64,000 bases of DNA from Escherichia coli (GTDB taxonomy: Bacteria > Pseudomonadota > Gammaproteobacteria > Enterobacterales > Enterobacteriaceae), in NCBI RefSeq assembly GCF_024502345.1, contig NZ_JALDNN010000001.1. One strand, 5' to 3'. The notes beneath the pieces are model-generated. The model made no database searches and was not told where the DNA came from. It saw only the letters and a program-made list of their open reading frames with translations. Both the position numbers and the translations under genes were made by a program. Positions 21,934 to 24,306 of this stretch are shown here, one piece after another (positions within the stretch are counted from its first letter, which is position 1; every line of letters begins with the position of its first letter).

Positions 21934-22878
21934 TTATTGCCCGCGCGTTAACTCCCGCGCGGGTAATTGCTCCATCCATTGCATAAACACCTGCGGCGGC
22001 ATCGCCTTCGCAAAAAACCATCCCTGGCAATAGCGCACGCCGCGTTTGCGCAGCCAGTTAACCTGCTCCTCAGTTTCGACGCCTTCAGCGATCGTTTTTA
22101 ACCCCAGGCTGTGCGCCAGCTCGATGATGTGTTCCGCAATCAAATGACTGGTTTTGTGGGTGGTCAGCGTTTCAACAAACGATTTATCGATTTTCAAAAT
22201 ATCGACATTCAATGATTTAAGGTTATGCAAGTTAGAGTAGCCAATACCAAAATCATCAATTGCCACTTCGTAACCAGCCTGGCGGAAAGCCAGAATAATC
22301 GGCGTCATTTTTTCGACATCAAGAAATGCATGCTCAGTCACTTCAAATTTAATTTGCTGCGGACGCACCGCGTATTGCTCTGTTTTCTGATTGATTCGCG
22401 CTATCAACCGTGACGTATGAAAATCGGAGGCCGACAGGTTAATAGAAACATAGCGATCGGCATGTGTTGCCAAGTACGCGCCCAGATCGCGGAAGACATT
22501 ATCAATAACATAATCAGTTATCTGTTCTATCATCCCCTCCTTTTCTGCCAGCGGAATAAACTCTGCCGGATTCATTATTTGCCCCTGCTCACCAAGCCAA
22601 CGTAACAACGCTTCAGCGCCGATACATTTTTCTGTTTTGATATCGATTATTGGCTGGTAATAAAGACAAAGTTGATGTTTTTCGAGGGCGCGTTGCAATT
22701 TACGTTTGGGAGATAAATAGTTTTGTCGAATACGTAGCCAGAGTAATAGCAGAACAAGACTCCCCAAAATACCGGCGGGCAACGCAAAAATAAGATGATT
22801 ATAAAAATGGGTTATAAGACGTTGATATGAAGTCGCAACAATGGCTGCAATTGGGCGTTTTGTCGAATAAACTGTCGC
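21934..22878 (-). pseudogene. pdeC: c-di-GMP phosphodiesterase, C-terminal (EAL-domain) fragment separated from its N-terminus by IS1
   Basis: In-frame reading from the IS1 junction to the stop at 21934; EAL-domain motifs in ORF 21934-22782; joins the CSS-domain fragment at 23647-24306 once IS1 and one 9-mer are removed. Confidence 0.85.
22870..22878. repeat. 9-bp target-site duplication (aactgtcgc), left copy, for IS1 in pdeC
   Basis: Identical 9-mer directly abuts both IS1 ends (22870-22878 and 23647-23655). Confidence 0.9.
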
Positions 22879-22893
22879 GGTAATGACTCCAAC

Positions 22894-23397
22894 TTATTGA
22901 TAGTGTTTTATGTTCAGATAATGCCCGATGACTTTGTCATGCTGCTCCACCGATTTTGAGAACGACAGCGACTTCCGTCCCAGCCGTGCCAGGTGCTGCC
23001 TCAGATTCAGGTTATGCCGCTCAATTCGCTGCGTATATCGCTTGCTGATTACGTGCAGCTTTCCCTTCAGGCGGGATTCATACAGCGGCCAGCCATCCGT
23101 CATCCATATCACCACGTCAAAGGGTGACAGCAGGCTCATAAGACGCCCCAGCGTCGCCATAGTGCGTTCACCGAATACGTGCGCAACAACCGTCTTCCGG
23201 AGCCTGTCATACGCGTAAAACAGCCAGCGCTGGCGCGATTTAGCCCCGACGTATCCCCACTGTTCGTCCATTTCCGCGCAGACGATGACGTCACTGCCCG
23301 GCTGTATGCGCGAGGTTACCGACTGCGGCCTGAGTTTTTTAAATGGCGGAAAATCGTGTTGAGGCCAACGCCCATAATGCGGGCGGTTGCCCGGCAT
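22894..23397 (-). CDS. insB: IS1 InsB reading frame (expressed as InsAB' transposase by -1 frameshift)
   Basis: 167-aa ORF ...[53 protein letters not shown]... Confidence 0.9.
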
Positions 23398-23591
23398 CCA
23401 ACGCCATTCATGGCCATATCAATGATTTTCTGGTGCGTACCGGGTTGAGAAGCGGTGTAAGTGAACTGCAGTTGCCATGTTTTACGGCAGTGAGAGCAGA
23501 GATAGCGCTGATGTCCGGCGGTGCTTTTGCCGTTACGCACCACCCCGTCAGTAGCTGAACAGGAGGGACAGCTGATAGAAACAGAAGCCAC
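23316..23591 (-). CDS. insA: IS1 InsA DNA-binding protein/transposition inhibitor
   Basis: 91-aa [46 protein letters not shown]...; A6C slippery motif gagtttttt on plus strand at 23334-23340. Confidence 0.92.
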
Positions 23592-23646
23592 TGGAGCACC
23601 TCAAAAACACCATCATACACTAAATCAGTAAGTTGGCAGCATCACC

Positions 23647-23655
23647 AACTGTCGC
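23647..23655. repeat. 9-bp target-site duplication (aactgtcgc), right copy, for IS1 in pdeC
   Basis: See left copy. Confidence 0.9.
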
Positions 23656-24306
23656 ATATAAATAGCCATTTCTTTGTACGGTTAAATCCTTCAAATGAAT
23701 CAGCGGAGAAAACGTTGCTGCCGAGGCCTCTTTGCTTAACGAGAAAAAGGTTTTCGTCACCGTATCATACACACCCCATTGCAATGTCGGGTCATCAGAC
23801 ATCACTTCACTCCAGAAGAGAGGGTTGATAACCGCCACATAATTTCCCCGCTGCATATAGGTCATTTTATAGCCAGAGAAAAAAGGCGTATCGCGGTAAT
23901 AATAGATAGAAACGTTAGGTTCACGCTTATAATCGGCCGGTGCAATCGTATAGCCGTTTACAGGCGCTATCAGCGATGAGCATAAAAAATGGTTATCACG
24001 GGCATAGATCAATTCATTAATATAAAGATAGCCACGAATAATATTCAACATTCGCTTTTGATGGGCTGGAGTGCAAACTTGCCCCTGATAGCGTTCAGCT
24101 GCATCGCTCACTAAATCTGCCTGGCGAATGACCAGCTCGGATTTATCCAGTGCCAGTTGAGCAAAGGTTCGGAGCTGATTATTCACTTCTGATTTTGCCC
24201 AAAGGAAGGCAATCCATAGCGAAAGAATGATGGGAAAGAGAACTAAAAAGATAATGCCCGGCAACGCCAGTAATTGGTGTCGTGCACGATGACTCATTGC
24301 TATCAA
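23647..24306 (-). pseudogene. pdeC: c-di-GMP phosphodiesterase, N-terminal (membrane-anchored periplasmic CSS-domain) fragment
   Basis: ORF 23620-24306 starts MIAMSHRARHQLLALPGIIFLVLF... and runs 8 codons into IS1 before terminating. Confidence 0.85.

Follow-up and report, generated by a model that had tools for sequence, protein, structure and literature searches.

IS1 insertion within the c-di-GMP phosphodiesterase gene pdeC of an Escherichia coli genome: a probable loss-of-function allele

Introduction

Does a pdeC gene that carries an insertion sequence inside its coding region still yield a working phosphodiesterase of cyclic di-guanosine monophosphate (c-di-GMP), or has it been reduced to a pseudogene? 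The question is raised by a stretch of 64,000 nucleotides of Escherichia coli DNA (contig NZ_JALDNN010000001.1 of assembly GCF_024502345.1), called the window throughout, in which pdeC (yjcC; b4061 in E. coli K-12) is split by a complete copy of the insertion sequence IS1. The locus had been described in a reading made from the sequence alone (the sequence-only reading), and the claims of that reading were followed up here by computational analysis. The most likely account of the locus is a simple transposition of IS1 into the chromosomal pdeC of an E. coli-type genome, which would have left a loss-of-function pseudogene; a probability of about 0.9 was assigned to this reading. The hydrolysis of c-di-GMP and its redox control through DsbA/DsbB are known solely for the K-12 protein (PMC5897775).

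Reconstruction of the interrupted gene

The IS1 element and one copy of its target repeat were removed in silico. The result was an uninterrupted open reading frame (ORF) of 1587 nucleotides (nt) and 528 codons on the minus strand, with its ATG at 24297 and its TAA at 21934-21936. The rebuilt ORF aligned base-for-base with K-12 pdeC at 99.37% nt identity, with 10 nt differences and no other lesion. The comparison with the uninterrupted gene indicated that the flanking ORFs are collinear halves of one gene and in frame, as the sequence-only reading had proposed. The same reading had started the gene at 24306; that end is an upstream in-frame TTG, and the counterpart of the K-12 start is the ATG at 24297. 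Three amino-acid changes, P309L, D348A and D403E, separate the rebuilt PdeC from the K-12 protein, and P309L adjoins the EALLR motif.

The domain content of the rebuilt protein was analysed. In the Pfam search, residues 39-243 matched the CSS-motif domain (E = 3e-52) and residues 273-505 the EAL domain (E = 5e-71), and the hydropathy profile revealed two transmembrane segments, TM1 spanning about 5-36 and TM2 about 240-265. The repaired protein has Cys75, Cys106-Ser-Ser and EALLR (303-307), and its order is TM1, CSS with two conserved cysteines, TM2 and EAL. No PdeC-specific NCBIfam model scored above its cut-off, so the identity of the gene rests on the K-12 alignment. The gene order soxR-soxS-pdeC-yjcB-ssb-uvrA is that of K-12 and bears out the orthology. 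The pdeC-yjcB intergenic stretch upstream of the gene (24298-24726, minus strand), which presumably holds the native promoter, is identical to K-12 at 429 of 429 nt. In synteny, in length (528 residues), in the TM1-CSS(Cys75/Cys106)-TM2-EAL architecture and in these upstream 429 nt, the locus is like K-12 pdeC as described by Herbst et al. 2018 (PMC5897775); it is unlike it in being split after codon 217 by IS1 and in the three substitutions.

In the K-12 alignment the upstream fragment covers pdeC nt 1-651 and the downstream fragment nt 643-1587, and their overlap is the 9-bp duplication. The upstream piece is the start of a 225-residue ORF (23620-24297, minus strand) whose native part shows 100% identity to nt 1-651 of K-12 pdeC. 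This ORF encodes PdeC residues 1-217 followed by eight IS1-encoded residues, GDAANLLI, and ends at a TAG (23620-23622); it holds TM1, most of the CSS domain, Cys75 and Cys106-Ser-Ser, and is without TM2 and EAL. The 3' fragment (21934-22878, minus strand) comprises codons 215-528 and the TAA and aligns to K-12 nt 643-1587 at 98.9%. It opens with one 9-nt copy of the target duplication and carries the last 17 CSS residues, TM2 and the EAL domain.

In the K-12 protein the periplasmic CSS domain was delimited as Thr44-Arg234, a TM2+EAL construct was started at Ser231 and a soluble EAL construct at Arg263 (PMC5897775). On this scale IS1 lies after Val217 (codon 217), within the periplasmic CSS domain and 17 residues short of its end. 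The insertion had been placed between the sensor and EAL domains. It is indeed upstream of EAL, but inside the CSS domain and not beyond it. Likewise the assignment of a membrane-anchored CSS domain to the upstream fragment and of EAL to the downstream fragment stands, with the correction that the last 17 CSS residues and TM2 go with the EAL part.

IS1 element and target duplication

The element was delimited by a search for the pattern of the left inverted repeat (IRL) and by comparison with IS1A of K-12 and with a second IS1 copy in lamB of the same window. A complete IS1 of 768 bp was found at 22879-23646 on the minus strand, with the right inverted repeat (IRR) at 22879-22901 and IRL at 23624-23646, both intact. 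The IRR end falls exactly at 22879, where the element opens with ggtaatgactcc and shows the canonical right end, ggtaatgactccaacttattgat. The IRL end falls exactly at 23646, where the element closes with ggcagcatcacc; the canonical left end in reverse complement, atcagtaagttggcagcatcacc, stops at this position. The terminal repeats are those of IS1, being about 23 bp long and imperfect (GGTGATGCTGCCAACTTACTGAT / GGTAATGACTCCAACTTATTGAT); IRL is an exact match, and the two ends agree at 21 of their first 30 nt. Within the 64-kb window the 23-nt IRL pattern has just two occurrences, at 23624-23646 on the minus strand and at 51341-51363 on the plus strand, where 0 copies are expected by chance. 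The claims of a full element, and of an orientation opposite to the lamB copy, are both borne out by these positions.

The 9-mer AACTGTCGC adjoins both ends of the element as a perfect direct repeat, in accordance with the 8-9 bp target duplication of IS1. The flanking repeat aactgtcgc had been reported correctly; its two copies lie at 22870-22878, where it encodes Ala215-Thr216-Val217 on the minus strand, and at 23647-23655. The chance of an exact 9-bp match at two fixed positions is about 4e-6.

The element differs from K-12 IS1A at 8 of 768 nt (760 identical, 99%) and from the lamB copy at 5 nt. Four of the eight differences from IS1A, at IS1 positions 262-304, separate the pdeC copy from the lamB copy. 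The gene insA (23316-23591, minus strand) encodes 91 residues from a GTG start, matches positions 1-81 of the NCBIfam IS1 transposase model NF033558 and carries a single amino-acid change, L81F, relative to K-12 InsA. The insB frame is a 167-residue ORF (22894-23397, minus strand) that matches positions 76-199 of the same model. The A6C motif TTAAAAAAC (23334-23342, minus strand; IS1 positions 305-313) is intact. At this motif a programmed -1 frameshift joins insA to insB' and yields the transposase InsAB'. With both frames intact and the motif present, frameshifting is predicted for this copy as for other members of the family. A promoter-like site, CTGCCA-16-TATGAT, was found by consensus scan within IRL (23612-23639, minus strand) and reads into insA; from its position we take it to be the known IS1 promoter pIRL. 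Thus the element is like K-12 IS1A in its 768 bp, terminal inverted repeats, insA, insB, A6C site and 9-bp target duplication, and from its sequence it looks transposition-competent.

IS1 is transcribed in the direction of pdeC. Host transcription that enters a co-oriented IS1 from upstream raises insAB' transcription and transposition (PMC12428005). By analogy, since the element is co-oriented with pdeC, read-in from the gene may boost the expression of insA and insAB' of this copy.

Coding capacity after the insertion

A single uninterrupted polypeptide of sensor, TM2 and EAL is no longer encoded. With its ORF broken after codon 217, the locus was classed as a pdeC pseudogene and not as a functional member of the family. 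The following course of events is proposed. IS1 would have entered the gene behind codon 217, and its 9-bp target, aactgtcgc, would have been duplicated in the process. The mRNA from the unchanged pdeC promoter would then be translated in the pdeC frame until it terminates eight codons into IS1. The truncated product, consisting of TM1 and the CSS domain minus its last 17 residues, would have no phosphodiesterase activity for want of TM2 and EAL. The part encoding TM2 and EAL lies downstream of the whole element and is cut off from insB by an in-frame TAA, and no active enzyme would be translated from it. The choice of the target would reflect a preferred AT-rich stretch and not necessarily selection for the loss of pdeC.

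The possibility that the EAL part is still made was analysed through the start codons and promoters available to it. The TAA of insB (22894-22896) shares its frame with the downstream pdeC fragment and lies six sense codons before codon 215, counted as five IS1 codons and then the stop; an insB-pdeC fusion protein is thereby precluded. The start-codon inventory revealed no in-frame ATG, GTG or TTG from the insB stop and the IS1 junction up to 22782. The first start-capable in-frame codon after the junction is the TTG of Leu247 (22780-22782, minus strand), which falls in the middle of TM2. No Shine-Dalgarno sequence precedes it, and the 20 nt upstream, ataatcatcttatttttgcg, are rich in pyrimidines and in A and T. 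The first in-frame ATGs encode Met316 and Met330, and products started there would be without the catalytic motif, since both lie beyond the catalytic Glu303 of EALLR.

The sequence-only reading had suggested that an outward promoter of IS1 could drive the EAL fragment from an internal Met at 22782. The codon at that position is the TTG of Leu247. The consensus scan, at its threshold, found no outward sigma-70-like promoter at the IRR junction; the sole site found was the inward one of the pIRL type. By eye only weak candidates were seen at the junction, TTGGAG-17-TATTCG and an internal perfect TATAAT without a -35 element. Neither the scan nor the start-codon inventory lends support to the suggestion, and a functional EAL fragment is unlikely to be made from this allele.

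The loss of phosphodiesterase that had been predicted is upheld in the sense that the allele is best read as null, from its split ORF and from the lack of a usable start ahead of TM2. In K-12 the deletion of pdeC has a weak phenotype: macrocolony morphology was barely altered and CsgD was unchanged, and the curli/cellulose matrix increased slightly in deep biofilm layers (PMC5897775). The expected phenotype of the present allele would be that of such a deletion, namely mild.

Several points weigh against the reading of the locus as a simple transposition with loss of function. A megablast search with both IS1 junctions against the 5,426 complete E. coli genomes of RefSeq did not recover the junction of the window in its site and orientation, and the 24.6-kb flank had a best identity of 99.2% in the same set, to B1-type strains. 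The loss of function is itself deduced from the sequence. The weak internal start TTG247, or an unconventional initiation, may still be used. The substitutions P309L, D348A and D403E would leave it uncertain whether the protein had full activity before the insertion.

Same allele in other assemblies

The exact 225-residue product and a 282-residue downstream ORF are present in GenBank (CAK1212733.1 and CAK1212739.1, labelled E. coli) and occur on more than 20 public contigs. In the assembly GCA_963577445.1, a 1.25-Mb contig bears IS1 at this very site and in this orientation, with identical 225- and 282-residue ORFs. The assembly differs from the window at 51 of 6,674 aligned positions, of which 8 lie in IS1 and one in the left target repeat (aactgttgc), with a cluster in uvrA; from this number of mismatches it was taken to be another strain. 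The allele may be shared with it either by descent or by independent insertion. The uvrA cluster comprises 31 of the 51 mismatches, which lie within about 1 kb (window 26229-27243), and for many of them the spacing is a multiple of 3 nt, a pattern expected of third-codon positions in a recombination tract.

The comparison of the window with K-12 also revealed a tract of 2.85 kb with a single mismatch, from the 5' end of uvrA (the last ~330 nt of the uvrA stretch of the K-12 locus) through ssb and yjcB to pdeC nt 925; both sides of this tract have diverged from K-12. The 5' part of pdeC is 100% and the 3' part 98.9% identical to K-12, and a recombination breakpoint at IS1 was considered on this account. 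It was rejected, as the K-12-identical tract continues for about 275 nt past the insertion and the first mismatch after the insertion site is at pdeC nt 926.

No paper on this particular pdeC::IS1 allele was found in the literature. The allele is a textbook IS1 pseudogene of a known gene, already present in public assemblies, and analogous ones are annotated in RefSeq.

Recurrent IS1 insertions in pdeC

The sampled loci of other genomes were mapped onto K-12 pdeC to place their IS1 targets. Nine targets were found in the sampled genomes, at nt 82-90, 238-245, 331-339, 620-632, 643-651, 649-657, 780-789, 868-880 and 1292-1300. Both orientations occur at two of them (643-651 and 868-880), which brings the number of events in the pdeC ORF to at least 11, and further IS1 insertions lie in the pdeC-yjcB spacer. 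A query with the whole locus revealed IS1 in or beside pdeC, in the orientation of the window, in 204 of the 5,426 complete genomes, and a query with the element flipped added 16 more in the opposite orientation. Most of the 204 appear to be one clade with the insertion of the E. coli 042 type, as judged by their uniform matches.

The target of the window, 643-651, is also used in strain FDAARGOS_1281, with an identical duplication and the opposite orientation of IS1, in a pdeC that is only about 97% identical to K-12. Strain 2900 probably uses the same target in that opposite orientation, as it gave the same single-piece full-length match. At 868-880 the E. coli 042 clade carries IS1 in one orientation and strain GCU-H1 in the other. 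The O121 strain 201805972 has IS1 at 649-657, 6 bp from the target of the window, and the mouse strain S1 at 620-632. These alleles are like the present one in gene and element family, and RefSeq annotates their pseudogene halves beside the IS1 transposase; they are unlike it in that none of the 5,426 genomes has both its site and its orientation.

The segment nt 620-657 (window 22864-22878 and 23647-23678) forms a hot spot, with four alleles within 38 bp in unrelated backgrounds. The 042-type element, found in E. coli 042 and strain IH5, is a divergent IS1 that is about 90% identical to that of the window. In strain IH5 the same N-terminal pdeC fragment joins ugd/gnd via a partial IS1F, indicating an IS1-mediated rearrangement.

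Losses of the gene were looked for in the literature. A 2026 preprint lists pdeB, D, G, H, K and N as the intact phosphodiesterase genes of Shigella flexneri 2457T (PMC13320778), from which it follows that pdeC is not intact there. Frameshift and truncated yjcC alleles were reported in natural, biofilm-forming E. coli isolates (PMC5635171). In the part of the supplement of Hawkey et al. 2020 on IS-interrupted Shigella genes that was available, no yjcC or pdeC entry was found. A paper on O55:H7 matched 'pdeC' falsely, through plasmid names that begin with pDEC.

Weighing of alternative explanations

IS1 is a multi-copy element and a classic source of mis-assembly, and contigs that end in such repeats could have been mis-joined so that IS1 is not truly in pdeC; the failure to find the exact junction among the complete genomes would fit this. 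A mis-join would not, however, produce a perfect 9-bp duplication with the two gene halves adjacent to it in the right order and orientation. The independent assembly GCA_963577445.1 also spans the same insertion, and several short-read and metagenome contigs stop precisely at this junction. On account of the perfect duplication and the independent assemblies, an artefact is very unlikely. A gain or change of function was considered next to it, in which TM2 and EAL, expressed alone by read-through or from a hybrid or internal promoter, would form a constitutive, redox-ungated phosphodiesterase that mimics the PdeC processed by DegP/DegQ. The cloned TM2+EAL fragment from Ser231 was highly active and entered the membrane without TM1, while the isolated EAL domain (from Arg263) had very low activity, TM2 being required and mediating dimerisation (PMC5897775). 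That active construct begins 13 residues downstream of the insertion point (after Val217), read-through transcripts would be sense because IS1 and pdeC are co-oriented, and four distinct IS1 alleles occupy three target positions within nt 620-657. The start codons speak otherwise: none is available in frame between the insB TAA and Leu247, a product from TTG247 would lose about the first third of the TM2 needed for dimerisation and activity, and Met316 and Met330 come too late. Nor did the consensus scan find an outward-facing promoter-like site at the junction. IS1 insertions are classically strongly polar. The other natural insertions strike both the N-terminal region and EAL (nt 82-90, 238-245, 331-339, 780-789, 868-880 and 1292-1300), which fits loss. 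A slim chance is left for such a constitutive enzyme. The further proposal, that the site itself was selected for uncoupling EAL from the redox sensor, with TM2+EAL still made through read-through or cryptic initiation and the cluster at nt 620-657 as the mark of recurrent selection, has a slimmer one still.

The loss of function may also be asked to carry more meaning than transposition alone, if inactivation of pdeC were advantageous in some niches and the present IS1 were one selected instance of an adaptive convergent loss. The 11 or more independent events in the ORF, the 204 and 16 genomes with IS1 in or beside pdeC in two orientations, the non-intact pdeC of S. flexneri 2457T and the frameshift and truncation alleles of biofilm-forming E. 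coli would all agree with this. The local composition was set against these counts. The 69-nt neighbourhood of the insertion has 37.7% GC against 50.8% for the window, and seven of the nine IS1 sites fall in the AT-richest 17% of pdeC (41-nt windows), so that the insertion sites follow local AT-richness. As a control, the same IS1 was placed in silico into a SopA-family gene (47505-49085) of the same length, non-essential and with 31.9% GC, and the chimeric sequence was used as a query. Run in a single orientation, this query revealed 20 genomes that showed a wide variety of IS1 configurations; the apparent events are at least as numerous as in pdeC, in a comparison that covered this one control gene. 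Since the control was hit about as often, selection for the loss of pdeC is not claimed. Most of the 204 genomes look like one 042-type clade, and the weak phenotype of the K-12 deletion also speaks against an adaptive loss. Adaptive loss is thus considered unlikely, and a target preference for AT-rich dispensable DNA may suffice to explain the recurrence. A simple transposition into pdeC, with loss of function, remains the preferred reading.

Sequence features near the IS1 targets

Some features of the target region were observed post hoc. The motif (T)ATTCGACAAAA occurs twice in pdeC, at nt 652-663 and 790-800 (window 22858-22869 and 22721-22731), and both copies are directly 3' of IS1 target duplications (643-651 and 780-789). 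A perfect consensus of the integration host factor (IHF), TATCAACGTCTTA, is present at pdeC nt 694-706, about 45 bp from the 643-657 cluster.

Neighbourhood of the locus

The second IS1 copy, in lamB (51341-52108, plus strand), is flanked by a perfect 9-bp duplication, accgaagcc, at 51332-51340 and 52109-52117. Among the 5,426 complete E. coli genomes of RefSeq, none has the junction of this copy either. The two copies are inverted and 27.7 kb apart, and they form a substrate for inverting the segment ssb-uvrA-dnaB-lexA-plsB-malM. As each copy retains its matching target duplications, no recombination between them has occurred since insertion. All ORFs of at least 150 residues in the window, other than pdeC and lamB, appear full-length. 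Since, in addition, the identical pdeC fragments bear the E. coli label in GenBank, a Shigella origin, which had been considered, is not claimed.

The spacer between yjcB and ssb is an integration hot spot that carries defence islands (PMC11728103). It is empty in the window (25009-25106), and AbiGi, Avs4 or other cargo is present in several related loci. The Rfam search found nothing within the coordinates of the insertion locus; just past the 3' end of soxR it identified the Hfq-binding small RNA SraL (RyjA; RF01408, 150.9 bits) at 20925-21065 on the plus strand. SraL and soxR lie on opposite strands and share a few nt, an arrangement also seen in K-12.

Conclusion

The locus adds one more IS1-made pseudogene to the variable c-di-GMP network of E. 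coli/Shigella-type genomes and has little weight alone. Biofilm, curli/cellulose or c-di-GMP phenotypes of this strain should be interpreted as those of a strain that lacks PdeC, and its co-oriented IS1 copy may show unusually strong transcription. The gene as a whole offers a natural data set on target choice, in which, across unrelated lineages, IS1 entered one 9-bp target in either orientation and hit several sites within a span of about 40 bp. It also carries a caution, that recurrent hits by insertion sequences are not to be read as selection unless a composition-matched control is at hand.

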